Shown here: positions 7,887 through 54,398 of the stretch, one piece after another
Position numbering within the stretch: the stretch's first letter is position 1
Layout of the letters: the number at the start of each line of letters is the position of its first letter
NCBI RefSeq assembly: GCF_963506605.1
Contig: NC_083292.1
Span: forward strand, 31,558,001 to 31,622,000
Direction of reading: 5' to 3'
Source of the DNA: Zootoca vivipara
Taxonomy: Eukaryota
Length of the DNA: 64,000 nt
Program-made: the position numbers and the translations under genes
The notes under the pieces: generated by a model
Database searches by the model: none
What the model was told of the DNA's origin: nothing
What the model saw: only the letters and a program-made list of their open reading frames with translations

Positions 7887-7988
7887 TTGCAAAAGGAGCT
7901 CTGGTCGCATGTCTTGAAGTTGCTTCTGTCCACAGCATAGACAACAGCCAGGCAAAGAGCTAACCAAGCAAGAGCTGCCATCTCGAGT
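7887..7988 (-). CDS. GANAB: GANAB exon 2 (signal peptide, [34 protein letters not shown])
   Basis: ccaatag acceptor and gtaagt donor; [15 protein letters not shown] matches GANAB. Confidence 0.95.
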
Positions 7989-8624: not shown

Positions 8625-11600
8625 TACTTACATCTTACAACTACTTTGATTGTGCTCAAAAGGGATGTTTTAAGGCCCAGGTGCCACCTGGAATTTCTAC
8701 ACCAGCCTAACCCAAGCAGGGCAGACACAAAATGCCTTTTCAAAGCTAAGATCCCACTGACACAGGCTGCTCAATTGCTTCACTGAAAAAGGGAAATGAG
8801 AATGGGAATACAGAAGATACACAGAATAATAGAATCATAGAATTGTAGAGTTGGAAGGGACCATGAGGTTCACCTAGTACAACCCCAGCAATGCAGGAAT
8901 CTTTTGCCCAATGTGTGGCTCAAACCCTTGGCTCTGACATTAAGAGAATCATGCTCTAGCATTGAACAACATCCTTTTGGGGGGGGGGGGTAATCAGGAC
9001 TGCTGAGACTATCTGCATGTAAAGCAGATGCTCTACCACCGAACTACAGCCCTTCCCCACAGTGTTTAAAAACACAGGTCCTGCGCAAGCTCTCAACTGA
9101 AAGATGGCTTCTGGATTGCCTTATCTCATCTGTAGTGTAGTAATGACAAAAAGAAAGATCAGGATCACCAGATAGGAACAGAGAAAACTGCTTTACACCA
9201 AAGCAGACCATTGCTTCATCTAACTCACTGCTGTCTACACTGGCATCAGTTCTCCAGGGTCTCAGACAACAGGCTTTGCCAGCCTGACCTAGATGCACTG
9301 GGGATCGAAGCTAGGATCTGTGCCTGACCTACACAACATGATTTTTTTTAAATGCAGGAGATTTATAAATCACATAATTTTTACAAACCTCTCTACGTGG
9401 TGTACAACTAAAACTATAGATAAACAACAGCTGCAATCTACTAACCAATTAGAAATGCACAAAACCATTATGATTAAAACGCAGAATAAAAGAATAAAAT
9501 GTAGGTAACCAAATTATATGTCTAGGCAGGCATGCAAAAATGCACACTCACACACAAATCAGCATTGGCAGAACATCAACAAGGGGTTCTGGCTCCTAAT
9601 TATTTAACAACAGCAACAAGAGAAAGCTTTTCTCTCTCCCCAAATTAGGCAGTTAGAATCCCACATATAAAGCTCACTCAAGGGGATTTGTACTTGTACA
9701 TGCACATTATCCCCATTTCTGGCTCATGAGGCGTTTCCTCCTCTTCTCCAGCCACTATACCTGTCTCTGAATGGTGGAGCTTGGGGCCTTAGTAAAAACA
9801 CCAGAGTGGGATTCCACCTAAACAGCTTTTGCTCACATCCACAACACGCTGAAAGCCCTGCCTCAGCATTATGTTCTACCTTGATCACTGGCATCCTGCA
9901 ATGGGGTACTTCTCATGGTCCCGCATGCCCCTGGGTTTTGGTGAGCCCTGCTCGGTGAAACTTCCTGCCAGTGAAGGTTTGGCAGGAATCATCTCTGCCT
10001 CCTTTCATGTATCTCCAAAAAACTGTGTTATTCAGACAGGCCTTTGCAATGTGGATTTCTTATTGCCAATGAATATCTACTGATATTCTTACTGATGTTT
10101 TTATGTCTCTTAATGTAATTTTGTACACTGTATACCAACCTGCTATATGTTTTTTTTAAGTGCAGTCTATAAACACTTTAATAAATAAATGGATATGTTA
10201 ATACATAATAAGAGCAGCGCTTTTATACCACTTGAGCAATCAAGGCTTCCCCAAAGAATCCTGGAAACTGTGTTTTGTGAAGGATGTAGAGGATCATAGC
10301 TCTTGAGAGTTCTCCCAATAACTCTCAGCACAAACTACAGTTCCCAAGATTCTTGAGTGGGAAACGGGGAGTCATGACTATTAAAGAAGCATGAGAGTGC
10401 TTTCAATGTATAGAGAAGATGCGACTGTAAAATCTGCCAACACCTGTTCTTGACGCACAGACTCATTCATAGCAGGAATTCCAAGATGGGACCAGCCATC
10501 TGCTGTGCCGTCAGTGATCAGGAAGTAGCTTCTAGAGACAGAACTATGGGCACAGGGAGAGTGCAAAGGGCAAACAGAGCTCTCCACTGCTGGTGTGAAG
10601 GTCAGTGCTCGTTTCCACACATGCTGCATCTGAGTGATCAAAGGCTGAAAAGCAGGAGCCATGTGCTAATAGCAGGATCAGCACACTGGGCTGGACAAGA
10701 CCTCACTTGCAAAAGCACTAAGTTCTGAAGGCAGTTTCAGTAATAAAAAGATAAAAAGAAAAACTGCCCCTTTATTTTTTGGTTCCTCATCTTTTTCAAA
10801 ACATAGTTCCTTGAGGCAGGGACCTGTCCTTTTTGGTCGTCCACATTATTTTGAAAAGTATTTTGAAGCACACCACGAAAACAAAAACTAAGGGAAATAA
10901 TCACAACCATGCCATGGTTCAATCACAAGAACTACAATTGGGATGGGTATTAGGGAACATAGAAAACCATCTTATATAGAATCAGACTATTGGTGTGCCT
11001 AGCTCAGTCTTGTCTAAACGGACTTGCAGCAGCTCTCCAGGGTTTTAGGCAGGGTCTCTTCCAGCTCTACCTAAAGATTTTGGGGACTGAACTTGGGACC
11101 TTCTGCATACAAAGCAGATGTTCTACCACTGAGCTGTGAACACAGCACAGGTACATAGGAAGCTGCTTTGTACGGTACTGAGTTGGCACAATGGTTCATC
11201 TAGGCCAGAGTTCTTGACACTGACTGCCAGTGGCATCTCCAATCAGATGCTCTACAGCACAGACACAGACCCATGGCTATGCAAAAATGTGCAGAGCACA
11301 GTCCACAGTACAAATCATTTTCATAGTTTTCTGTAAATCTCAGCAGAATAAAGTTTCCAGTCCTCAAGAACATACAAAATGAATGTAATGGAATATGAAA
11401 TGGTCAACAAGCAAAAAGGCTCAGTGCTGTGCTTCTTAATAACTGGTACAGAGCACAGCAAACTAAAAAAGGACTGCTGGATCAAGTCAAAGCCCCATCT
11501 AGTCCAAGATCCTGTTGTCACATCCAAACCTGATCCTTGAAGAATCTTGCAAACTAAGTTTGAAATCACAGCCCAGCCTTGGCTTTGCTTAGGTGGTTTT

Positions 11601-12288
11601 AGACTAGTGTCCCCTGAACTTGGTCTGCCAAAATGGAAATATTGGATTATCTGCTTCATAATAAAAAATAATTGTGGAGATGAATTAGAGAAAGGTCACA
11701 CCCACGCCATACATTGGGAGGCCTAGCTACACCGCAAAATATCCAGAGAAGTGGAGTTGGTTAAGGGCTCTGGGAACTGTAGATCCCTGACAGGGTAAAT
11801 TAGTTCCCAGGATTCTTTGCACTGGGTATTTTGAATGCATCGTGTGCGCACAGCACAGGTAGACAGACGTACAGGCAGGTGGCTGCATTCTAAGGGGTCT
11901 GCAAGCCTTAGAAGGGGCTTATGGGGGTTGCACAAATGGAAAGGGGTCCTGCAAGGGATTCGGGGACCACGGGCTGGGTGGGTGAGCAGGGGCAAGGAGC
12001 AGCACGCGCACCTGTGAGGCGACCTGCGGGAAGGAGGTCTATTCCAGAAGCGACGTGGAAGCACAATGGGGGCGGGGAGAACATGTGGGGTTGGAGGGCG
12101 GGAATAAGGCGACTGTGGGAAGGCAGCGGGGGCTGAAGGGAAGCCCCGGAAGTTAAAGTGTAATTCAGGAGGAATGAAGAGTTGGTGGTATTCGGTGGGG
12201 AGGCAGGGAACCCATTCTAAAAACAGCCCTCACCCCCCCCACACACACCCCGCGTAGCCGCCACCCCACAAGTGAGCCTCGCTCTCAC

Positions 12289-12314
12289 CTCCCTGCTGCC
12301 GCCGCCGCCGCCAT
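12289..12314 (-). CDS. GANAB: GANAB (glucosidase II alpha) coding exon 1, MAAAAAAG(R)
   Basis: CpG-rich region, Kozak-like ccaagATGG, AG|gtgaga donor; joins in frame to exon 2. Confidence 0.88.
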
Positions 12315-12680
12315 CTTGGATCCCGCTTGACTGGCCCCTCCCGCCGAGGGTTATCGTCCCCACCCCGTCCCCACCGAGGCTTCTTATTGGATCCCACGAC
12401 ATGAGCCCGCCCCTTCGCTTCTCGAATCGGCCGGCCGCTCCGCCGCGGGTCCCTCCCACTCACTGTTGCATTATTCATGAGCGGGCTTTCCCGGCGCGTG
12501 CGTACACCGGAGGTGGCAAAGGCACGTTTCCCGGGAGCGGGGGATGGGGGCAGCGCTCGGACACCTGGGTCCCGTTCTGGGAAATGATGATACGAAGCTT
12601 CGGTGCCTGGATCCTGTTGTGAGATGGGACATTCGAACGCCTGGGTCCCGTCCTGGGAGAATGAACATCAGGGATCCGAT
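12315..12680 (-). promoter_or_regulatory. GANAB CpG-island promoter
   Basis: High CpG; CCAAT (attgg 12386-12390) and GC box (cccgccc) upstream of ATG. Confidence 0.7.
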
Positions 12681-12872
12681 TCTGAGAAAGGAGTCTTGGA
12701 CTGGTCCTGGCCCCTTACTGAAATTTTAGAAAGTGAGCAGTAGGATGTGTGTTCTGTTCATCTAGCCAAAACCGCGAAGCCAGCTGTCCCCCACCGCAAT
12801 GCCCCAAACTCAATGGAACTCTTTTTCTTTTGAGGGCTTATGTACTCTGTTCATTTGGGGTTGTATATATCC

Positions 12873-13356
12873 GCTCACTGGAAGGACAGATCGTGAAGCT
12901 GAGGCTCCAATACTTTGGCCACCTCATGAGAAGAGAAGACTCCCTGGAAAAGACCCTGATGTTGGGAAAGATGGAGGGCACAAGGAGAAGGGGATGCCCT
13001 CCATCTTTCCCAACATCAGGGTCTTTTCCAGGGAGTCTTCTCTTCTCATGAGGTGGCCAAAGTATTGGAGCCTCAGCTTCACGATCTGTCCTTCCAGTGA
13101 GCACTCAGGGCTGATTTCCTTCAGAATGGATAGGTTTGATCTTCTAGCAGTCCATGGGACTCTCAAGAGTCTCCTCCAACACCATAATTCAAAAGCATCA
13201 ATTCTTCGGTGATCATTCTTCTTTATGGTCCAGCTCTCACTTCCATACACCACTACTGGGAAAATGATAGCTTTAACTATATGGACCTTTATCGGCAAGG
13301 TGATGTCTCTGGTTTTTAAGATGCTGTCTAGGTTTGTCATTGCTTTTCTCCCCAGC
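12873..13356 (-). mobile_element. RTE-BovB fragment with 108-bp fold-back
   Basis: ORF RRIDAFELWCWRRLLRVPW..LQYFGHLMRR. Confidence 0.88.
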
Positions 13357-14809: not shown

Positions 14810-17254
14810 GTGTCTCCCACTCCTGCTGCGACAAGCTCTCTTCCTTGCCTCCCAGAACCAGAAGACGCATGAAAAGGGTGGAGATTGCTTGGAAAAAACC
14901 CTGGAGAGGAGGGGATGTAGACAGCTGTGGGGAGGTGGGGACCTTTAGTCTCAGCAACTGCTTCATGGAGGCAGGATCTACTGGAGATGAGTGGCTGTGC
15001 TCATTAGGCCTAACACTCCTGTGTAGATTGTGTTTTTGTTAATAAAGAGTTAACTCCAACTTGCAGAATGTGATTTACTGCTGCCTCGCTCTACATTTTG
15101 AACACCTCTTAAAATACCATAACCAAATTTTGCACAATGGTTCCTGAGATCAAGGAACAAGTTTTTGTCTGTGTTTGGATGGGTTTTTTAAAATCAAGAT
15201 GGCAGACTGAACCTTTTGAAACAGCACTGATTCTAACCGCAGATCACAAAATTGCACTGATCTTCTTTGGCTTCATAAACCCCAGAGCAACCCTAGGTGG
15301 AAGGCTGCTGGTGTTCTTTCATTGGCTGGAATTTGTCATTTAATTATTATGATTATTTTTTTACAAATTAAAAAGTATTTGCAGGAAGACTGTTTCTGGA
15401 CAAAGCGCCAGTGCTGCGTGAGCTGCTCTTTGTATGCCAAGCCAGCTGCAGAGTCATATAAGCTCCGTTTCCTTAAAAAAAAGAAAAAGAAATTGAAATT
15501 TGCTCAACATTGTTACAACTGCTTATTTCGCCATCAAGATGGAAACTCTCTTAGCCCTCTGTCTCTAACTGAAAAAAGCAAAGGGACAGAAGTTCCTTCT
15601 TCACTTTTTTATTATTTAGAAAATGGTTTAACCCATCACCTCCCACAAAAACCACCCAACTGGGCTGTGATGATGCAAAAGCAGAAAGGTCAGCAACCCT
15701 CCAGCCCTGCTGAAAATGACTGACAGCAAGAACCCCGTGCCACACATGACCTCTTTCTAGCACTTGAATCGTCCCTGAAAAGGAAAGTAGCAATTGCCCA
15801 GAGGGCATTTAGGCACAAGGAGGTCAAGCAGGACTCTTGTCACACACAAGCGGAGCTCTGGTACCAACAGGGGGACATCTTTCTTTGGACTGGCTATATA
15901 GATCAGTGCTCAAGTACGCACGGATAAGTTTAGCTAAGTTCTGGCACTATGGTCAGTTGTTCCCACACAACAGCATCAGAAACCTTCTGGAGAAGAGCCC
16001 TCTGCTTTGTAGGATAAGCTGACCACATCTGTTTATGCAAAGTGTTGTATCCAAGTGCTACTCAGAGAAGGCCCACTGAAATAAAAGTTTCAATGAACAG
16101 GACTTAGCTGGCTACAACCCCATGTGGCAAACCCCCATCACCAGGAATTGTAGTAGGGCGCAATCAATGGTCAGCTCAGAGCCACTCTTGAGAAGCAGCC
16201 AAACAGGCAAATGGCTTCACCTGCCCAAATCCTTACTTTAGTGAAGCAGTATGGGGAAAACACTCTCACGTCAAGTAAGGCAATACTGACTGGGCCCTGC
16301 TCGTGTTGAAGCATTGCATTTTGGGCCCACAGAAGAGCTCTGCATAACCCAGAAACATGAAAGTCTTCCAAGAGCTCTTCAGTAGGGCAACATTTCACCA
16401 ACTCTGTGTAACTAGAAATATTTGCACATTCTTATGCGCACTCACCAACTGAGCAGCCCGATAAGTGATTATTACTTAATCTATTTGTCCTTTATTATGG
16501 GGAAATGGGTTTTGTTTTGTTTGTTTTTGCGGGGAGGGGGTGGTTTGCACCAGAATTTATTTACCAAAATTTCCCTCCTTGCCCCCTCCCTATTCTTGTG
16601 CATTTAGGAATGTGTACCTGCTCAGTGATTGTAACCTCCGTGGGATTCTTAACAGATTTCCAGATCATAGCAATACTATGGCAAGGAAGTGAGCTAACAG
16701 ATCTGGAAAAACAAGAGAGAGAAATGCAAAAGCTTCAGGCATTTCCCCCTCAGCCTACCTGGATATGGCTATGTCAGTTGACATTGACAGCCATAACACA
16801 TGGCACACAGCAGAGTACACCAGACTGTGTCCAAACTGCTACCGTCTGGCTTTAACCGAGGCCTATGACCCTCTCAAGTGCCAGGTCATCCTGGCAACTT
16901 CTCTACTTGCTGCATGTTGTGCTTTTGAAGCAGCATCTCACTACTTTTAACTGCATTTTCAGCTCACAATTCATAGGTCCTTCTGCAAACTAAGCTGCCA
17001 ACACCAGCTTGGGGGGGGGGGCATCACATCGAAGCTGAGGATAGAGATGAGGCCTAGGAAAGAAGGACCTTCTGTTCCTTCTTTCTCATGACAACCCCCC
17101 AACTGCTGCACACCTGGACAAGTCATATGGCAGTTTTTCCTTTGCTTACAATCAAAACCAGACTTTTAAAAAGGCAGGAGGGCAGGATGTTCCCTCCCCT
17201 GACAGTGGCAGGCAGGCTGACCAATCCCACAGGGCAAGAGCACCAAAAGGGGAG

Positions 17255-20063
17255 CTAGATCTGGAAGCGCCCTGAGAGCAGCCCCAGCCGGTCAATGTTT
17301 TTATGCAGGACGCTGTGCAGGACGCAAAGGTATTTGCCAATGTCGGTGTCTCTGCTGAAGTCCCGGAAGAAGAGCCCTGTGCCAGAGTTGAAGGTGAACT
17401 TCTGCGGCAGCGGGCTGTTGTCGCGCATGTAGTCCCAGACGCTGAGGAGCAAGAGGTGGACCTCAAAGGGCGCCAGCTGGTCAAAAATCTCATGCATGTT
17501 GCTGAGCACGGGCGGGAGGAGGTGGCCCTCGCCCATGCAGGCCACCAGGGCGCAGGAGGCCTGCAAGTGCCAGGGGGAGCTGGTGGTGTCGTTCTCCCGC
17601 GAAGCCTCCCAGTGCGCCATCAAAGTCGCCAGGAGGCCGCGGAGAAGCACTGAGCAGTAACAGAGGGCTGGCCTCCCCGCTGCCACCAGGCTAAGCAGCT
17701 GGAAGAGCAGGGGGTTGTCGCGGAAAGCCCTCCCAATCTGGATGTCCCGCTCCACTGTGTTGCGGGTGTGCTCCTCCGGAGGCCACGCCAATTCGCTGTT
17801 GGTGATGTCAGGGCAGACGGTCTCCACCAGCACCACCGCCACCGTCTTCGCTGCCTCGGGGCTGACTGCAGCGTGCTGGGAGGGCTCCGGGCTGCAGCGC
17901 TCAGCTCCGCAGCACCGCAGCAGCAAACCCAGGAAGGTCTGGACATTGTGGGATATCTCCTCCGGCTCTCGTTGGTAGGGGGCGTGGGGCGGCTTCAGGC
18001 CCCTCCCAATCACGCCGGCATGGAACACAGACCATACACTCCCCGAGAAGTTCACTGCGGCCATAAATCGGCGGTTGATATCCAGCAGGGAGACCTTGGT
18101 GCCTTCCAGGGTGGCAGGGTCGTTCCCAACCGCAGGAGGCTCGGGCAGCCCGCCAAAGATCTCGGCGTTCCCTGGGTGCAGGGCCCCTTCCACCAGGTAC
18201 TGAAGTATGGCCTTGCCAGCGGTGGGCGAAGCCCCGCTGAGGCAGCAGAGGAGCCGGCTTCCGTAGCTGATGCCTGTGGGGGACTTGCAGCGCAGCACCA
18301 GGAAGAAGTGGTGGACGGCTGAGCGGATGAGGAAAAGGAGGTGAGCTGGCCGGATGGCCTTTGGCATGGGGCAGACGGAGAGCAGCAAGGCCGCCACCTG
18401 GGCCACCTCCGGGTTGCAGTGCAGCAGGAGCTGCCCAAAGTCATAGAGGTGCGACGCGACAGCCTGGCCCAGCTGGTGGCCCATGGAGGCGGGGCCCTCG
18501 CTCTCCCTCTGCATGATCAAGGCCAGGTTCTGGAAGAGCTGAGCCATGTGCTGCTCGGAGAGGGCGCCGGCGTGGATCTGGCACACGCACTTCTTCACGG
18601 TGGCCGGCAGCAGGTCGCTCATGCAAGAGCTGAGCACAGCGTGGAGCTGAGTGGCCAGGCTGAGCTCCTCCTGGCTCCTGGCCAGCGTCAGCAAAAAGAA
18701 GAGGGCCTCGCTGGCGCAGCTGGGGGTGCAGTAGACGGAGAGGAGGACCAGCAGCTGGTGCTGCCAGAGGAACCGCTTCCTCTCCAGCCGCAGCGTCTCC
18801 ACACACAGTTCCCGCACGTGGCCCTTCAGCTCGTCCAGGAAAGGCACCGGCCGGGGAGGGGCCTCTGCCAAGCTGGCTGAGCCCCGGTTGTACACCAGTT
18901 TCTGGAGGTTGAGCAGCAGCAGCTGGATGACACGGTCGCAAGCCTCTCGCACGCTGTCGTGGACGGCCAGGCCTGGGGTGGTGATGACAGAAGCCGGCAT
19001 GGCTGTGTTGATGAGGAACTGCAGGGTGCGGTAAGCTCCTCCCGACGTCTGGCAGATGAGGTGCACCACGATACTCACCATGTTCTCCAGATCCTCCCGA
19101 GGGAGCGAGGCAAAGTGCTGGTGCAGCTGGTTGAGCACGCCTGGCTTGAGGGAGTCCACCAGCTCGGCCGAGATGGTGCCCAGCAGAGTGGGAGACATGA
19201 CGGCCAGCTGGAGCAAGAAGGGCACGGTGGCCTTCTGCTGCTGGTCCCGCGTGGGGCCCAGGCTCCCATGGAACATCCTTAGCAGCTCCTGCTTGATGCT
19301 CTCGGAGTGGCGGGAGGCCAAGTGGCCCAGGATGCCCACCACCGAGGCGATCTTGGGGACCCTCTTGTCTGCCGCTGTGGCGCTAGGGAAGAGGAGGAGG
19401 TCAGCCGAGGCCGTGCCATGCATGCAGAAGTCCTTCAGCCCACAGGAGAGCACGCGGTTGATGATCGTGTTGGGGAAGGACGAGCCGATGTGGGCCACCA
19501 CCCAGTCGAAGTGTGGAGAGTGCTGGACCGAGGTGTCTAGCAGGGCATCCACGCAAGCGTCTGGGCAGGTGCTGATCATGGAGGAGAGGCACTGCGTGTA
19601 GATCTCCATCAGCGTCCGAGTCGCCTTGCAGGACATCCACAGCTGCAGCAGCTCATTCAGGCTGCTGGCGTGGGGCACGCCGTGCCGGCCAGCATACTTG
19701 CTGCTCAGCTGTCCCATCAGGTCGATGGACCAGGCCGAGACCAAGGCTGCCCACGCCTTGGGGTTCATGCGGACAAACTCGGACAGCACGGCCTGGATCT
19801 CTTGCACCACGTCATCCAAGTTGGGACCCTGGGAGCGGATGGAGCCCAGCCCACCCTCGCTGCTCTCCAGGTCCAGCAAGTAGGTGCACACATACTCATC
19901 AAAGACACCCCGGAGGTGGTCCAGGACGGCGCTGCGAGCAGGCGGCAGACTGCGCAGCAGCAGGATGGCACATCGGGCATGCTCCTTCAGGGTGAGTTTG
20001 TTGCCGTGCAAAGGGTCTACACCACTAAGGAAGGCCTTGATTTCCTGGGCCAGCTCTTGCGAA
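17255..20063 (-). CDS. INTS5: INTS5 (Integrator subunit 5) exon 2
   Basis: Long [20 protein letters not shown]...[10 protein letters not shown]; cctgtag acceptor ending 20064; the ORF-track start at 20095 is intronic. Confidence 0.97.
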
Positions 20064-21115
20064 CTACAGGAGGCAAAGGAAAAAGAAGGAAACATAGCAT
20101 CAATCCTGGGTCACGATCCTAAACAATATTGTTTTAAAGTGGTATGATACTGCTTTAAATATAAAGTGCAGGTGGTGGGGGCTTAATTTGCTTGCAAGGG
20201 CTTACTCTATTGCAATCTCACAACAGAAACTAGCTTTATCACCATGTGTTCCCACAGAAGCATTTCTCTCCTTTTACAATTCTCGCCCCCCACATCCAGC
20301 TTGGAAAAGTGTTGTGTTTAATTCATAAGCTCACAGTCCACTTTATGAACAATGGCTGGTGTTAATGATTGTTTTAATTTGCTTTGAAATGTGATTTGCT
20401 AAATATCTGAACTTTATGCATGTGTCATTTCACAAGAAAAACATGACCAGGGTAGGGGTGAGAGCTTCCTTTCAAAAATAATTCTGTCATTATTAGCCTT
20501 GAGTCTGATCCAGCATGTTAACATAGGAAGCTCCCTTATACAAGTCAGATCCTTGCTCCATCTAGCTCAGTACTGGTTACACTGACTGGCAGTAGCTCTC
20601 CAGGGCTTCAGGCACTTCTTCGCAGCCCTGCCTGGAGATGCTACTGGGTACGGAACCTGGTACTTTCTGCGCTCAAAGCAGATGCTCTGCCTCCAGTCCT
20701 ATTTCCCATCCCAAGTCCTATTTCCCATCTGTCACATCTGAATTTCCCAACAAGCCTTACTTGCAGAGTTGGAAGGGACCCCAAAGGTCATCTAGTCCAA
20801 CCCCCGTTGCTGTGCACAATAGTAGCAGCAACCTAACCCAAAATGCACATAAATGGTACCTATGTTTTCCCTGTGTTAACCCTCCCCGCTACCATTTCTC
20901 TTCGGATTTTAGACTGCAAGCTCTTCGAGGCAGGGACCTCTGTAAAATGACACAAGCGCGCTGTAATTATTCCTTCCCAGAGCCACCAGAGAAAGTGACC
21001 ATCACCACACCCTCTGTACAAAGATGAGGGGGCTGGGTGGTGCCAGTGTAAAGGGGGCGTCCTAGTCCCTTACAAGTGGCAGGGGAGGAGAGAGAAGAGG
21101 TAAGAGAATCAGTAC

Positions 21116-21198
21116 CTGAGCGATGGAGAAGCAGCTGCTGGTTTGGGGCTGGACCCCGGAGGCCCTGCCACCCCCGGGGGATCGCACAGAGCGGACAT
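21116..21198 (-). CDS. INTS5: INTS5 exon 1 (MSALCDPPGVAGPPGSSPKPAAASPSL)
   Basis: MSALCDPPG is the INTS5 N-terminus; 83 nt, CAG|gtact donor, in frame with exon 2 (963 aa total). Confidence 0.93.
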
Positions 21199-21953
21199 AC
21201 CGCCCAAGGGGAGAAAAGCTGCAGAAGAACCAGTCCCTTTGTCCCCCCTACTTCCCTTCTGCGCCTGCGCGCGGTTGAGCAGCGTTGAGGGAAGCATACA
21301 AACAGCGCACAGAAAGTGCCCCCTTGGAAAATTGTTCCGTGCAGGCCTGCCGTCCTTTCAGATTAGCATTCCACTTTCCGTTATAACGCTTGGCACCCAT
21401 GGAAGGCAAGCACTGTGTCACTCTTTAACTGGAGGAGTGTTCCTCAATTGCCTTGACTTGCCAGTCAGAATGGTTTTTTGCTTCTTTTACAGGGCAGTTG
21501 CCAAAACTGAGATGTATGCGTCGCCTGTTTAAAAAAAAGAAAACTTGTGGCACCTTAAAAGCTCGACAGGTGTTTTTTAATAGCATGATCTGTTTTTAGT
21601 ATTATCATTAATCATCATCATCATGAAAGTGCATGACATTCTCACCCTCCACCCTGGTTTATACCAGTCCTTTCAGATTTATGTACAAATACAAGGGAAA
21701 ACAAAAGATCAAGTACAGTAATCAATTGACCAGGAAGGAAAAGAAGCCGGCGGCAGAGTAACAAAACAGGCCCCTGACCTCAGGGGCTTACAAGCTATAA
21801 ACGGGGAAACAAATGGGGTAGGAATACATACATTTTGTTGACTTACACTACAGTATTTAAAAATAATTCTGAAAATCAAAAGGTGTGGGGGCAACTTTTC
21901 ACTCTGGCTTTGGGCTTGTAATCTGAAAAGTGTCATTATGACTTCTTTTAGAC

Positions 21954-22137
21954 CAGGGGTAGTCAACCTTTTTACCTACCGCCCACTAATGAAATTTTCT
22001 TGATGGTAAAATTTCCTTGCTGCCCACCAGTGCTTGATGGAAGGAGGATTCAGCTTGTGCCATAGATCCCCCTACTGCCTACCTAGAATCCTGAAATGCC
22101 TACTATTGGGCGGTTGGGACCAGGTTGACAACCCCTG
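21954..22137. mobile_element. hAT MITE
   Basis: TIR CAGGGGTAGTCAACC/GGTTGACAACCCCTG, 8-bp TSD TTTTAGAC. Confidence 0.85.
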
Positions 22138-22179
22138 TTTTAGACTGACCAGTGGAATACAACATATGAACATATGAAA

Positions 22180-23212
22180 AGTCCTGCTGGATCAGGTCAA
22201 ACTGCATTCAAAATCACCGTGCAGTCACAGTTTTGTTTAGGTGGTCCTGGGCTAGTGTCTCTTGAACTTGGTCTGTCAAATGGAGATACTGGATTATCTG
22301 TTTCATTATAAAAAAAATTGCAGAGATGGATCACATCCACACTATACATTTAGAGTACATGGCTCTCCCCAAAGAAATGAGGGGGAGGAAGAGGTTGGAC
22401 TAGATGACCAATTGAATTGCAAGGAGTGGAACTAGATGACTGTCAGGGTCCCCTCCAACTCCACAATTCTGTGATTCTAAGAATCCAGGGAAGTGGAGTT
22501 GGTTAAGGGCGCTGGGAACTGTAGATCCCTGACAGGGTAAATTAGTTCCCAGGATTCTTTGCACTGGGTATTTTGAATGCATCGTGTGCGCACAGCACAG
22601 GTAGACAGACGTACAGGCAGGTGGCTGCATTGTAAGGGGTCTGCAAGCCTTAGAAGGGGCTTATGGGGGTTGCACAAATGGAAAGGGGTCCTGCAAGGGA
22701 TTCGGGGACCACGGACTGGGTGGGTGAGCAGGGGCAAGGAGCAGCACGCGCACCTGTGAGGCTACCTGCGGGAAGGAGGTCTATTCCAGCAGCGACGTGG
22801 AAGCACAATGGGGGCGGGGAGACCATGTGGGGTTGGAGGGCGGGAATAAGGCGACTGTGGGAAGGCAGCGGGGGCTGAAGGGAAGCCCCGGAAGTTAAAG
22901 TGTAATTCAGGAGGAATGAAGAGTTGGTGGTCTTCGGTGGGAAGGGAGGGCACCCATTCTGAAAACAGCCCTCTTCCCCACCCCGCATAGCCGCCACCCC
23001 ACAAGTGAGCCTCGCTCTCACCTCCCCGCAGCTGCCGCCGCCATCTTGGATCCCGCTTGACTGGCCCCTCCCGCAGAGGGTTATCGGCCCCTCCCCCTCC
23101 CCACCGAGGCTTCTTATTGGATCCCGCGGTATGAGCCAGCCTCTTCGCTTTTCGAATCGGCCGGCCGGCCGCTCCGCCGCGGATCCCTCCCACTCGCTCT
23201 TGCATTATTCAT
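22180..23212 (-). repeat. Direct duplication of GANAB promoter, exon 1 and start of intron 1 (paralog of ~11470-12478)
   Basis: Near-identical sequence 22480-23212 vs 11740-12478; intact ATG exon 23044-23022 with gtgaga donor. Confidence 0.93.
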
Positions 23213-23280
23213 TACCCTGTTAACCTTTCAGGTGCCGCAAGACCCCTTTGGAGTTTTATTTGACAGACTGTACAAGTTCA

Positions 23281-23712
23281 CTGTAGTGATGTATGGAAGT
23301 GAGAGGTGGACCATAAAGAAGGCTGATCGCCGAAGAATTGATGCTTTTGAATTATGGTGCTGGAGGAGACTCTTGAGAGTCCCATGGACTACAAGAAGAT
23401 CAAACCTATCCATTCTGAAGGAAATCAGCCCTGAGTGCTCACTGGAAGGACAGATCCTGAAGCTGAGGCTCCAATACTTTGGCCACCTCATGAGAAGAAA
23501 AGACTCCATGGAAAGGACCCTGATGTTGGGAAAGATTGAGGGCACTAGGAGAAGGGGACGACAGAGGACGAGATGGTTGGACAGTGTTCTCAAAGCTACC
23601 AACATGAGTCTGACCAAACTGCAGGAGGCAGTGGAAGACAGGAGTGCCTGGCGTGCTCTGGTCCATGGGGTCATGAAGAGTCGGACACGACTAAACGACT
23701 AAACAATAACAA
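23281..23712 (+). mobile_element. RTE-BovB 3' end
   Basis: ORF ending ALVHGVMKSRTRLND plus CAA-type tail. Confidence 0.9.
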
Positions 23713-33304: not shown

Positions 33305-33704
33305 CTCAAATATATTTGCTATTTCTTTTAACTGTGCTTGAAGTATAATGAGTTAATTTGGAGGCGGCTATATCTCCAATTTTTAAATTAAAGAAGACAA
33401 ATATAAATGAAAAGGTGTTCTTGATAATTCGGGACACTTGTGCATTTCAAGCTGAAATCAAAGTTGAGAGGGTAAGAGCAAGTAAATCTGGTAAACTTAA
33501 AAGGATCTGGATTTAACGGTAAATTGTTCCTAAGTCTATGTGTCACCAGATAATATTGTCAGCAGTCATTAAGTGCTAGAAATTCCTTTTACAGCTTTTC
33601 AAGCTGGAAGCTCTAAAAAGAACAGGAAGCTATCAAAGGGAAAGATTTGGAACCTCTGCCGGCACGCAATGAATAAATGGTTTCACAGTGCCTGCTGGGT
33701 AAAT

Positions 33705-33946
33705 GGGTGGGTCTATGCAGATTTTGCACCAATCGCCATCGGAGTAACCAGGCAGACGGCTGAGAAATTGACAAAATCGAAATAATAATCTAGTTTTGAG
33801 GTTAAATTGTCCATGAAGAGGTTTCTGAGTTGGAAAACAGGTAGATATGTTGTCAGAGTGTATTTTGTGAAAGTGGAAACGGTGCTGATTCTGATGGGGC
33901 AGTGAGAGCTTTGCAGCGTCAAATACCCACCAACACCTCAAAAGCT
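33705..33946 (+). promoter_or_regulatory. snRNA promoter of U2 copy 1: DSE and PSE
   Basis: GGGTGG, octamer-like ATGCAGAT 33715-33722, CCAAT; PSE-like CCACCAACACCTCAAAAG from 33927. Confidence 0.75.
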
Positions 33947-33986
33947 ATCGGAAAAGGTGACCCGCGTAATNNNNNNNNNNNNNNNN

Positions 33987-34173
33987 NNNNNNNNNNNNNN
34001 NNNNNNNNNNNNNNNNNNNNNNNNNNNNNNNNNNNNNNNNNNNNNNNNNNNNNNNNNNNNNNNNNNNNNNNNNNNNNNNNNNNNNNNNNNNNNNNNNNNN
34101 NNNNNNNNNGGGGCTTGCTCCGTCCACTCCATGCATCGACCTGGTATTGCAGTACCTCCAGGAACGGTGCACC
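33987..34173 (+). ncRNA. RNU2: U2 snRNA gene copy 1 (nt ~1-123 hidden by N run; start inferred)
   Basis: Visible 34110-34173 equals U2 3' end (GCTTGCTCCGTCCACTCC..GCATCGACCTGGTATTGCAGTACCTCCAGGAACGGTGCACC); PSE at -60; 3' box GTGCAAAAACAGA 34197-34209. Confidence 0.92.
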
Positions 34174-34402
34174 TCCCTTCGGGGAGAATATTACTGGTGC
34201 AAAAACAGAAAAACTTTGTTTCTAATTTTGATTGTGCTTTGTTACATAGTTTATATTATACAAAGCTTTTGAGAAATACAACGCAGGGGCACTTTGCGCT
34301 TATTCTGAATGTTTAATTTATACAGTTGTCCAGCCAATGTTTGCAAAAATACGTATGTTTGGAGAGAAGTGATGAAAATGACACACAAAAGTGCATTATA
34401 TT

Positions 34403-35749: not shown

Positions 35750-36039
35750 GACAACGCGAGAATTATCTGGCCCCACCTGCCATTCTGTCTCCACCTCCTG
35801 CCTGGGCTGCCTGCTTTCCCCACTTTAGTCCCAATGCAAACCAGGCACCACGGCCTGGAACCTGCAGTTCGTTAAAGTTGCTTGGAATAAGGGAAATATT
35901 TATTCTGCAACTCTGCTTTGCTTGGCTTGACAGCTGAGTTTTTGCAGGATGCTCTCAAGGGGAACAGGAAGTTAGGAACGGGAAGCTTTGTCGGACCTGT
36001 ACAGGCAGGCAGGCAATGAGTTAACAGTTACAAGGACCA

Positions 36040-36294
36040 TGACGTAAAATGGGCGGGAGTATGCAGATTGAGCACCAATCGCCATTGGAGTAACCAGGCA
36101 GGTCGCTGAGAAATTGGCAAGATCGAAATAATAATCTAGTTTTGATGTTCACTTATCGATTGAGAGGCTCCTGAGTTGGAAAAAAGAAGTAGAAATGTTG
36201 TCAGAGTGTATTTTATGGAATTGGAAACGGTGCTGATTCCGAGGGGGTGGTGAGAGCTTTGCAGCACCCAGGTACCCACCAACAACTCAAAAGG
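36040..36294 (+). promoter_or_regulatory. snRNA promoter of U2 copy 2: DSE and PSE
   Basis: TGACGT, GC box GGGCGG 36051, ATGCAGAT 36061-36068, CCAAT 36075; PSE-like CCACCAACAACTCAAAAGG from 36276. Confidence 0.8.
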
Positions 36295-36335
36295 CATCGG
36301 GAAAGGAGACGCGCGAATTTNNNNNNNNNNNNNNN

Positions 36336-36522
36336 NNNNNNNNNNNNNNNNNNNNNNNNNNNNNNNNNNNNNNNNNNNNNNNNNNNNNNNNNNNNNNNNN
36401 NNNNNNNNNNNNNNNNNNNNNNNNNNNNNNNNNNNNNNNNNNNNNNNNNNNNNNNNNNGGGGCTTGCTTCGTCCACTCCATGCATCGACCTGGTATTGCA
36501 GTACCTCCAGGAACGGTGCACC
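36336..36522 (+). ncRNA. RNU2: U2 snRNA gene copy 2 (5' part hidden by N run; start inferred)
   Basis: Visible 36459-36522 equals U2 3' end; PSE at -60; 3' box GTACAAAAGATAGA 36546-36559. Confidence 0.92.
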
Positions 36523-37602
36523 TCCCTTCGGGGAGAATATTACTGGTACAAAAGATAGATAAAAATTTGTTCTTTATTGTTTGGTGCTAAACTATAATTC
36601 ATCCTATTTCATGAGAATATGATTTTTTTTCTCAACGTTGTGTGTAAGCTCGAATTGTTTTCTCATGTCTCAAAGAAATACACCCGTTAATACCGTAAAT
36701 ATGTTTGTTTCTTCTTAAGGGTTGGAATGACCCCTCGGAGGCCATCTATTCTAGCCGAACCGCCTCCAATGCAGGACTCTTTTGCCCAAGGGTGTGTGTG
36801 GCGGCTCTTGAACTCACAATCCTGAAGCTGAGTCTCATGCTCTACCGACTGAGCTATTCCAGCATGCTCATTCACATACTCATAAAAACAAAGGGCTTCG
36901 ACCCCATAACAATGTTTGAAGCTTTGGGAATTCGTGTCTGCAACGTAGACGTGCCACATAAGATCCATTCTGCATTTTTAATAACTCAAGTCTCTTAGGG
37001 TGGCAGCACAAGTACACTTTGGAACTCCCTGCCTATTGATATCAGGCTTTCGTTCTACTTTTTCAGTGCCTGCTAAAAACATTTTTGTTCCTGCAAGCGT
37101 AGGCAAGTTTTTATACAGTCGATGAGGGTTTTAATCTGTTTTTAGTCGAATGTTATTTTAACGTTTCAAAAGTCTTGAATAGCAGAACTCTTTGAGGGGT
37201 TTAGCGGTGTATAAATTTTATGAACTAAAATAAATAAATTCGAGGAAGAATCGCAACAGCACCGCAGCCCCATAAACACGAACAAGCAACCTTAGCAAAA
37301 CCCAAACAGCAAACGAAGCAATAAAAACCCACTCAAATTGGCAGATAACGAGAACCTCAACCCGCTTCCCTAGTACGCATCGGTGCGGTGGGTCCGTGCT
37401 CCCTCCAAGAATTACCGTAGTCAACATTTCTCCTCCCACGTGGCAGAGCAGTAGCGAAACACATCAGGGAAATGGTGGCAAAAGTTTGACCTGCTTTGCA
37501 ATTGACCCAGATGCCGATGTTCTCTTGCTTTGCAGCGCTGAACTACTTCCTCCTTGTACTCTCCTTAGCTCCTCCTTCCCCCTTCCTCCCGCCCCCCTGA
37601 AG

Positions 37603-45691: not shown

Positions 45692-45934
45692 ATTGTTGTT
45701 GTTGTTTAGTCGTTTAGTCGTGTCCGACTCTTCGTGACCCCATGGACCATAGCACGCCAGGCACTCCTGTCTTGCACTGCCTCCCGCAGTTTGGTCAAAC
45801 TCATGTTCGTAGCTTCGAGAACACTGTCCAACCATCTCGTCCTCTGTCGTCCCCTTCTCCTAGTGCCCTCAATCTTTCCCAACATCAGGGTCTTTTCCAA
45901 GGATTCTTCTCTTCTCATGAGGTGGCCAAAGTAT
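45692..45934 (-). mobile_element. RTE-BovB 3' end
   Basis: ORF 45706..45918 and (CAA)n tail. Confidence 0.9.
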
Positions 45935-46593
45935 TAATCCAACATTAATCTGATTAAAAATAGGGATGTCTTAAGGAAAAGCAGCACATTCTGAGATCAA
46001 ATCAGAAACCAGAACGGCTTCTGAAAACCCTCGACTGTCCCTGTAATAACAAACAGCGGCTCCTCCCCCCTTTTTTAAAGGGGGAAGCCATGATTGTTTC
46101 ATGTTTTGCTTTGAATGTGAGGTGTGCATGCGGCCTCAGAATCGCTGCTGCCGTCCCTCTCTGATAGCGGAGAGCTCAGGGTGCAGCCGCTTAAGAAGGA
46201 TTAGGGTCTGAGTGCCCTGACTCTGGCCTGGGATCTCACGGAAGCGCTAAAGCGCTTTGTCCTCGTGGCCAGATAATCCTTCAGCCATAAGATATGCCCA
46301 CATATCCCATCACTGCATGTGGAGCAAAGGTGACGTGACCCCAGCATGCAGATATATATTCCTAAATGTACAAGGCAAACACACATGCATAAGTATTGTG
46401 TCTGAAATAGTACAGGAGAGCAACCCTGAAGCCATTTTGCCTTTCCCAAATTGACCTCAATAATTTCTCTGCGGGGAGGAAGGAAATGGGGAAAGCTTTT
46501 CAATTGTCTTTGGACTGTAGGGGCTTACACCTCCCTGTAAATACAGTCTGGCAAGTATCTGTTAAGCTGAGCACACTATCAATATGCTTAAGA

Positions 46594-53796: not shown

Positions 53797-54060
53797 AGTA
53801 TGGGGTGAAGACACTGTCCCCCTCTCTGGGTGTGTACAGTACAGGAATGCATAAATTTGACTTGAAACAGATGGGCCCTTTCAATGTGTATATAGCCACA
53901 AAATCACATTACCCGACTGTGGACAGTGGGCACACTGAAGTACATTGTGATATCATACTGTTGTTTTTTAATGCACAAGGTGACATTTCATCGGACAAGC
54001 CAATAGTGAGGTGTAGGTTGCCACCTTTTTTTCAGTTGCTTAGTTGCTTCTTAGTTGCTT

Positions 54061-54398
54061 CCCATGGACTGCAAGAAGATCAAACCTATCGATTCTGAAG
54101 GAAATCAGCCCTGAGTGCTCACTGGAAGGACAGATCCTGAAGCTGAGGCTCCAATACTTTGGCCACCTCATGAGAAGAGAAGACTCCCTGGAAAAGACCC
54201 TGATGTTGGGAAAGATGGAGGGCACAAGGAGAAGGGGACGACAGAGGACAAGATGGTTGGACAGTGTTCTTGAAGCTACGAACATGAGTTTGACCAAACT
54301 GCGGGAGGCAGTGGAAGACAGGAATGCCTGGCGTGCTATGGTCCATGGGGTCACGAAGAGTCGGACACGACTAAATGACTAAACAACAACAACAACAA
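54061..54398 (+). mobile_element. RTE-BovB 3' end
   Basis: ORF 54044..54382 and (CAA)n tail. Confidence 0.9.

Follow-up and report, generated by a model that had tools for sequence, protein, structure and literature searches.

Organization of the INTS5-GANAB locus

The window analyzed here is a 64,000-nucleotide stretch of the genome of the lizard Zootoca vivipara. Along its minus strand, which carries the INTS5 and GANAB exons and the copy, lie, in this order, a C11orf98-like gene, a repeat fragment (23277-23712), a partial copy of the beginning of GANAB, INTS5 exons 1 and 2, the GANAB promoter with exon 1, and GANAB exon 2. The first of these genes, which we take to be C11orf98, has exons near 26560-25994 that are matched by a fused sheep model. 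INTS5 exon 2 (17255..20063; 935 codons) matches named INTS5 proteins, including that of Zootoca vivipara, at 100%. The native exon 1 of INTS5, with its coding part at 21116..21198 (ATG 21198, donor 21116, phase 2), matches protein P0001; it sits downstream of the copy and ahead of exon 2, with a separate small CpG island (21160-21419), and transcribed sequence extends to at least 21479. The identity of GANAB was established through five exons that match database protein P0210. The GANAB promoter occupies the parent segment of the duplication (11741..12478), in which the coding part of exon 1 (12314-12289, from the ATG at 12314 to the donor at 12289) encodes MAAAAAAG plus 2 bases. GANAB exon 2 (7887..7988) starts in phase 2 and carries the hydrophobic leader.

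The copy (23212-22198) is located upstream of INTS5 (ATG 21198) and in the same orientation, both being on the minus strand. It lies 1.8 kb upstream of INTS5's own first exon, and its parent is 10.7 kb away, in the next gene downstream. The coding part of the copied exon 1 (23022..23044; 23 bases) encodes MAAAAAG plus 2 bases, ends in phase 2 and is followed by the donor GTGAGA, the same as in the parent; it is one codon shorter than the parent exon and shows three third-position differences in the alignment used. A CCAAT box is found at 23120-23116, 76 bases before the ATG of the copy, and the aligned place in the parent is CCAAT as well. An earlier note on this DNA described the CCAAT, the ATG context, the donor and the phase of the copied exon correctly, and the in-frame splicing that it proposed, to INTS5 exon 2 (20063) and to GANAB exon 2 (7988), is possible in silico: the frame is open from the copied exon through INTS5 exon 2, with 943 residues before the stop, and also through GANAB exon 2.

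Two observations concern INTS5 exon 1 itself. The contig from X1 and proteins P0002, P0121 and P0003 contain two codons more than the window at 21143, a length polymorphism. Lacertid INTS5 models include a predicted 33-residue in-frame extension upstream of the ATG (21297-21198), which is well conserved in Zootoca, Lacerta and Podarcis.

Extent and integrity of the duplicate

Self-BLAST delimits a core of the copy (22483..23212) that comprises a cut-down GANAB promoter, exon 1 and the start of intron 1 and is 93.7% identical to 11741-12478 over 742 columns. Beyond the core, a more sensitive BLAST search detects a diverged tail (22198..22373): positions 22373-22198 match 11738-11550 at 72% over 190 columns (E 1e-26), with 72-78% identity across the tail, whose best-aligned part shows 28 differences in 134 columns. 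The same search yields a weak 25-base match of 22201-22177 to 11491-11467 (E 0.005). Between core and tail, in an alignment gap, lies a repeat fragment unique to the copy (22413..22479, minus strand; 79% to 8830-8895). Genome searches recover the core twice at full length, the other 38 of the best 40 matches listed being fragments of about 60-105 bases. The tail is matched at just two places in the genome (2/2) and is therefore part of the duplicate rather than a repeat. All aligned parts of the copy map to the GANAB promoter, exon 1 and intron 1, pointing to a single ancestral gene source. The proximal segment (11741-12478) appears to be the parent, as it has the full CpG island and is used by GANAB gene models. 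Thus, the direct duplicate of 11470-12478, put at about 1 kb in the earlier note, is real and its ends are about right, but the close likeness is limited to about 730 bases; the CpG richness is indeed kept (39 CpG in the copy vs 41 in the parent).

Just upstream of the copy, there is a young repeat fragment (23277..23712), presumably LINE-like, that is 94-96% identical to 12873-13262, 45693-45935 and 54060-54392 in mixed orientation. The repeats upstream of the copy were considered as a part of the duplicate and rejected as such, given the mixed orientation and the equal likeness to other repeat copies. The two young fragments located just upstream of the parent promoter (12873-13262) and of the copy (23277-23712) are apparently independent insertions, and the former consists of two pieces in opposite orientation.

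Mis-assembly is an unlikely source of the copy, and in particular, a false duplication of a haplotype is very improbable. Such an artefact would fit the part of the copy that is 98% identical to the parent, but other segments differ by 8.7% and 21%, the flanks differ, and the copy holds an insertion of its own. In four DNA-like runs with the same species label, 0.91-0.96 of the sampled words of 17200-23300 are present, compared with expected shares of 0.871 without the whole copy and 0.917 without the core; the former value is exceeded in 4/4 runs and the latter in 3/4. These runs all come from one study, and one is possibly the source of the assembly, so that the word content is support for the copy, not proof.

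Divergence mosaic and probable gene conversion

The divergence between copy and parent falls into three levels: 28/134 (21%) in the tail, 24/277 (8.7%) in the promoter/exon part, and 7/449 (1.6%) in the intron part. The intron segment (22483..22931), with 7 substitutions in 449 columns, is significantly closer to the parent than the promoter/exon part (Fisher p 1e-5; best-breakpoint permutation p 0.0014). Because the best-kept part of the copy is an intron, selection is not a ready explanation, and gene conversion fits. A tract of significantly higher identity is present inside an older duplicate, as in non-allelic gene conversion between nearby duplicates, and we infer that 22483..22931 is a recent gene-conversion tract.

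The non-CpG divergence of the tail (0.205) exceeds that of the repeat pairs in the window, which is 0.05-0.09 for six SINE-like pairs and 0.03-0.05 for four LINE-like pairs; therefore, the duplication likely predates those insertions. The segment is likely an old local duplicate whose similarity has been maintained by gene conversion; such exchange with the parent, in either direction and over 10.7 kb, would have refreshed the promoter part first and the intron part later. The age, the direction of the changes and the conversion are all read from one genome. An absolute date for the duplication was considered and rejected for want of a rate, as the accessible parts of PMC6733905 and PMC7643610 contain no rate usable for this purpose.

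Elsewhere in the window, a second duplicated unit (33603-34220 and 35944-36571) is 79% identical over 374 columns and 95% over 113; both of its copies contain a masked stretch.

Promoter content, CpG decay and RNA signal

The homology to the parent stops 168 bases upstream of the copy's ATG. As a comparison of the CpG islands shows (11920-12729 in the parent vs 22700-23289 in the copy), the upstream part of the GANAB island (12479..12729; about 250 bases) is absent from the copy, and beyond the end of homology, 20 CpG in the parent (12479-12780) are opposed by 3 in the copy (23213-23514). The promoter/exon segment of the copy, which includes the first 90 intron bases (22932..23212), keeps CCAAT and a AAGATGGC motif that we take to be YY1-like. 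The pattern search found in the parent only, and not in the copy, a GGGCGG box (presumably a GC box), a CCACG adjoining CCAAT, and motifs that we take to be NRF1-like and ZNF143-like; all these calls are simple pattern matches, which do not show function. With the upstream part of the island and several motifs missing from the copy, the idea that INTS5 inherited the regulation of GANAB is weakened. The promoter capture suggested in the earlier note, with INTS5 placed under GANAB regulation, stands with respect to the in-frame splicing, which is possible, but suffers from the truncation of the promoter, the loss of motifs and the presence of INTS5's own start, all points that the note leaves out.

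In the promoter part, 5 of 28 CpG sites have decayed between the two copies, compared with 30 of 64 in three disjoint repeat pairs (Fisher p 0.01), the comparison being matched on non-CpG divergence (0.068 vs 0.065). One side of this pairwise comparison is a functioning promoter, and just 2 of the 5 losses lie in the copy, with a per-lineage p of 0.03-0.11, depending on the comparison chosen. The low decay modestly suggests that the copy is unmethylated in the germ line, with the caveat that a silent copy could also regain CpGs through conversion from the parent.

The RNA data on 19700-23400 comprised three raw runs and one contig set, with about 6 in 100 reads per raw run, and two of these runs, X19 and X20, also had zero depth on INTS5 exon 2. 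The only junction among the alignments listed is the native INTS5 joint 21116>20063, in one read (run X21) and one contig (X1). The copied exon region (22924-23171) has depth 0 in 4/4 RNA sets, and the parent exon is equally blank in its 4/4: the control on 11830-12850 (runs X21, X20, X4 and X11), in which 12285-12319 was skipped as a repeat (GCG), returned 0 records. This control shares two runs with the test of the copy, with X19 and X1 standing without a control. Because the genuine GANAB exon 1 is also blank, the zero depth on the copy is no evidence of silence.

A candidate splice acceptor upstream of INTS5 exon 1 (21524..21549) ranks third among 101 YAG sites by pyrimidine count. Joined to it at 21524, the copy would contribute an upstream frame of 40 codons that precedes the native INTS5 ATG and is out of frame with INTS5; no read supports this acceptor in the RNA runs examined (about 6 in 100 reads per raw run). 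The acceptor looks strong, precedes the 5' end of the INTS5 contig by 45 bases, and could be used either by the copy or by transcripts reading through from the upstream gene.

Gene models and splice compatibility across vertebrates

Automated gene models may overlook first exons that are rare or nearly identical; in the models retrieved, the copy is not used. Eight of the nine lacertid INTS5 models contain the native exon 1, and the remaining one is truncated; three of the four Zootoca GANAB models begin with the parent peptide, and the fourth begins in exon 2. The start predicted from the copy, MAAAAAG[SR], occurs in 0/427 proteins retrieved in the INTS5/GANAB searches. INTS5 does not require a promoter from elsewhere, as its own exon 1 is intact and spliced. 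Since this exon is in use and no model starts from the copy, the copy can only be an additional first exon.

The 427 proteins were collected through searches and cluster look-ups and are a sample rather than a census, with 68/427 falling outside the classification patterns. Among 212 GANAB proteins with a recognizable N-terminal region, 19 begin with a stretch of 13-31 residues that they have in common with an INTS5 protein (P0169, P0174, P0192, P0219, P0220, P0222, P0232, P0235, P0245, P0249, P0256, P0257, P0265, P0276, P0369, P0371, P0372, P0374 and P0375). These models, which join INTS5 exon 1 to GANAB exon 2, come from 10 species, from bichir to snakes: Polypterus senegalus, Rhinophrynus dorsalis, Pelobates fuscus, P. 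cultripes, Gekko japonicus, Heteronotia binoei, Varanus komodoensis, Anolis carolinensis, Liasis olivaceus and Ahaetulla prasina. The same join (21116 -> 7988) is also open in this window, and INTS5 within a GANAB intron is already modelled in other species without a duplicate. Given the joined models in 10 species, any copy of GANAB exon 1 would fit INTS5 exon 2. The phase-2 match of the second exons of INTS5 and GANAB, to which the earlier note had drawn attention, is correct but not special: it is ancestral and, being older than the copy, carries no weight. As a sign of selection, it was rejected for this reason.

The read-through models resemble the arrangement with the copy in the locus involved, in phase-2 compatibility and in placing INTS5 exon 2 inside an intron of a GANAB transcript. 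They differ in using INTS5's own exon 1, in needing no duplicate and in being automated models. A conserved INTS5-GANAB read-through isoform, known from such models, may exist. Among the papers listed in a literature search on the INTS5-GANAB locus, with most subscription papers outside its scope, none deals with gene structure, the copy arrangement or the read-through isoform, and the accessible part of PMC7980224 contains nothing on the INTS5 N-terminus.

In snakes, several INTS5 and GANAB models are named '-like' (P0153, P0156, P0155, P0159 and P0160), and Pseudonaja has two INTS5 entries on different short contigs; the INTS5/GANAB locus is possibly duplicated in this group.

In 3 of 147 INTS5 proteins, all from caecilians (P0024, P0133 and P0135), MAAAAVVG or MAAAVVG directly precedes the exon-2 sequence. 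The GANAB protein of the caecilian Rhinatrema starts with MAAVAAVG (the caecilian INTS5 proteins were compared with P0193 and P0215). A takeover of INTS5 by a GANAB-type exon in caecilians would fit these sequences and would be a possible parallel, one that consists of 8 low-complexity residues in a single GANAB species, at the protein level. Against this parallel, a second Rhinatrema INTS5 model starts differently, and shark INTS5 is also alanine-initial.

Discussion

The arrangement is related to two processes described previously. According to the accessible part of PMC3371713, promoters of the primate LRRC37 genes were copied from BPTF and DND1 by segmental duplication, and the copies are active. 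As in LRRC37, the promoter of an unrelated gene was copied here upstream of a gene that keeps its own start (PMC3371713). However, the LRRC37 copies are active and come from distant loci, whereas the donor of the present copy is the next gene, 10.7 kb downstream, and the copy is known from sequence alone; furthermore, unlike in the part of the LRRC37 study available to us, a coding first exon is included, and conversion seems to link the copies. The copy is, then, a candidate for promoter capture of the LRRC37 type rather than a member of this class. Partial and chimeric gene duplicates were defined by Katju 2012, who, in the accessible part of that article, asks for an outgroup check (PMC3449122). 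The copy resembles this class in that a gene fragment was duplicated and might form a complete frame together with adjacent sequence (PMC3449122). As far as that part of the article describes chimeric duplicates, the copy differs from them in that its partner exons are those of an intact gene, which has a first exon of its own, and in that the fused frame is a predicted one.

The reading that we favor, with a probability of about one half, is that the duplicated part of GANAB, with promoter core, exon 1 and early intron 1, would act as a weak additional start site, giving rise to minor transcripts without a takeover of INTS5. Rare transcripts from the copy could be spliced in frame to INTS5 exon 2, whereby the 27-residue variable N-terminal tail would be replaced by a 7-residue one; the alternative splice, to GANAB exon 2, would yield an ordinary GANAB one alanine shorter. 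With either outcome, the effect would be on dose, not on the type of protein. The N-terminal tail region of INTS5 varies widely among vertebrates, and a small protein change is predicted because exon 1 of INTS5 encodes only this tail and the hydrophobic leader of GANAB resides in exon 2.

We regard it as rather unlikely, although a serious competitor, that the copy is a silent remnant that starts no transcripts and whose exon and CpGs persist only through repeated conversion from the parent. The absence of the upstream part of the island and of several motifs, together with the repeat inserted 65 bases upstream, would be in line with silence, and so would the fact that the best-conserved part is intron rather than promoter or exon, and that no gene model uses the copy. 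The zero depth at 22924-23171 in 4/4 runs points in the same direction, but is uninformative with the parent exon blank in 4/4 runs too. Outside the recent conversion tract, however, the CCAAT, the ATG context, the frame and the donor have all survived 24 substitutions and 3 indels, and the CpG decay is low; both findings speak against silence. At the other extreme, the copy might be the main start in some tissue, either for INTS5 (beginning with MAAAAAG-S) or for a long GANAB transcript enclosing INTS5, which would be a true promoter capture. This we consider improbable: the native INTS5 junction is the only one seen, 0/9 lacertid INTS5 models and 0/4 Zootoca GANAB models use the copy, and its promoter is truncated. 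Nevertheless, the frames to both acceptors are open, models that bypass INTS5 exon 2 on the way to GANAB exon 2 exist in 10 species, and a short alanine-rich start like that of Rhinatrema GANAB is found in 3/147 INTS5 proteins, all caecilian. The three coding substitutions are all at third positions (chance about 0.02), a count that is to be read with the ambiguity of alignment in the alanine repeat and with the changes having occurred, perhaps, in the parent.

A broader scenario, which we consider equally improbable, would tie the lizard and caecilian observations together: the first exons of the two genes, both in phase 2, would have been swappable since early bony vertebrates, the lizard would carry an old, conversion-maintained, active GANAB-type exon feeding INTS5, and caecilians would have fixed the swap.

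The copy is real and exemplifies, in a form that has probably not been described before, a known process. If it is silent, nothing more than an ordinary local duplicate is present. If active, it would be a compact example of a housekeeping promoter that was duplicated to a neighbouring position and held similar to its source through gene conversion, in a locus where the first exons of both genes are interchangeable, and caecilians may represent the end state.
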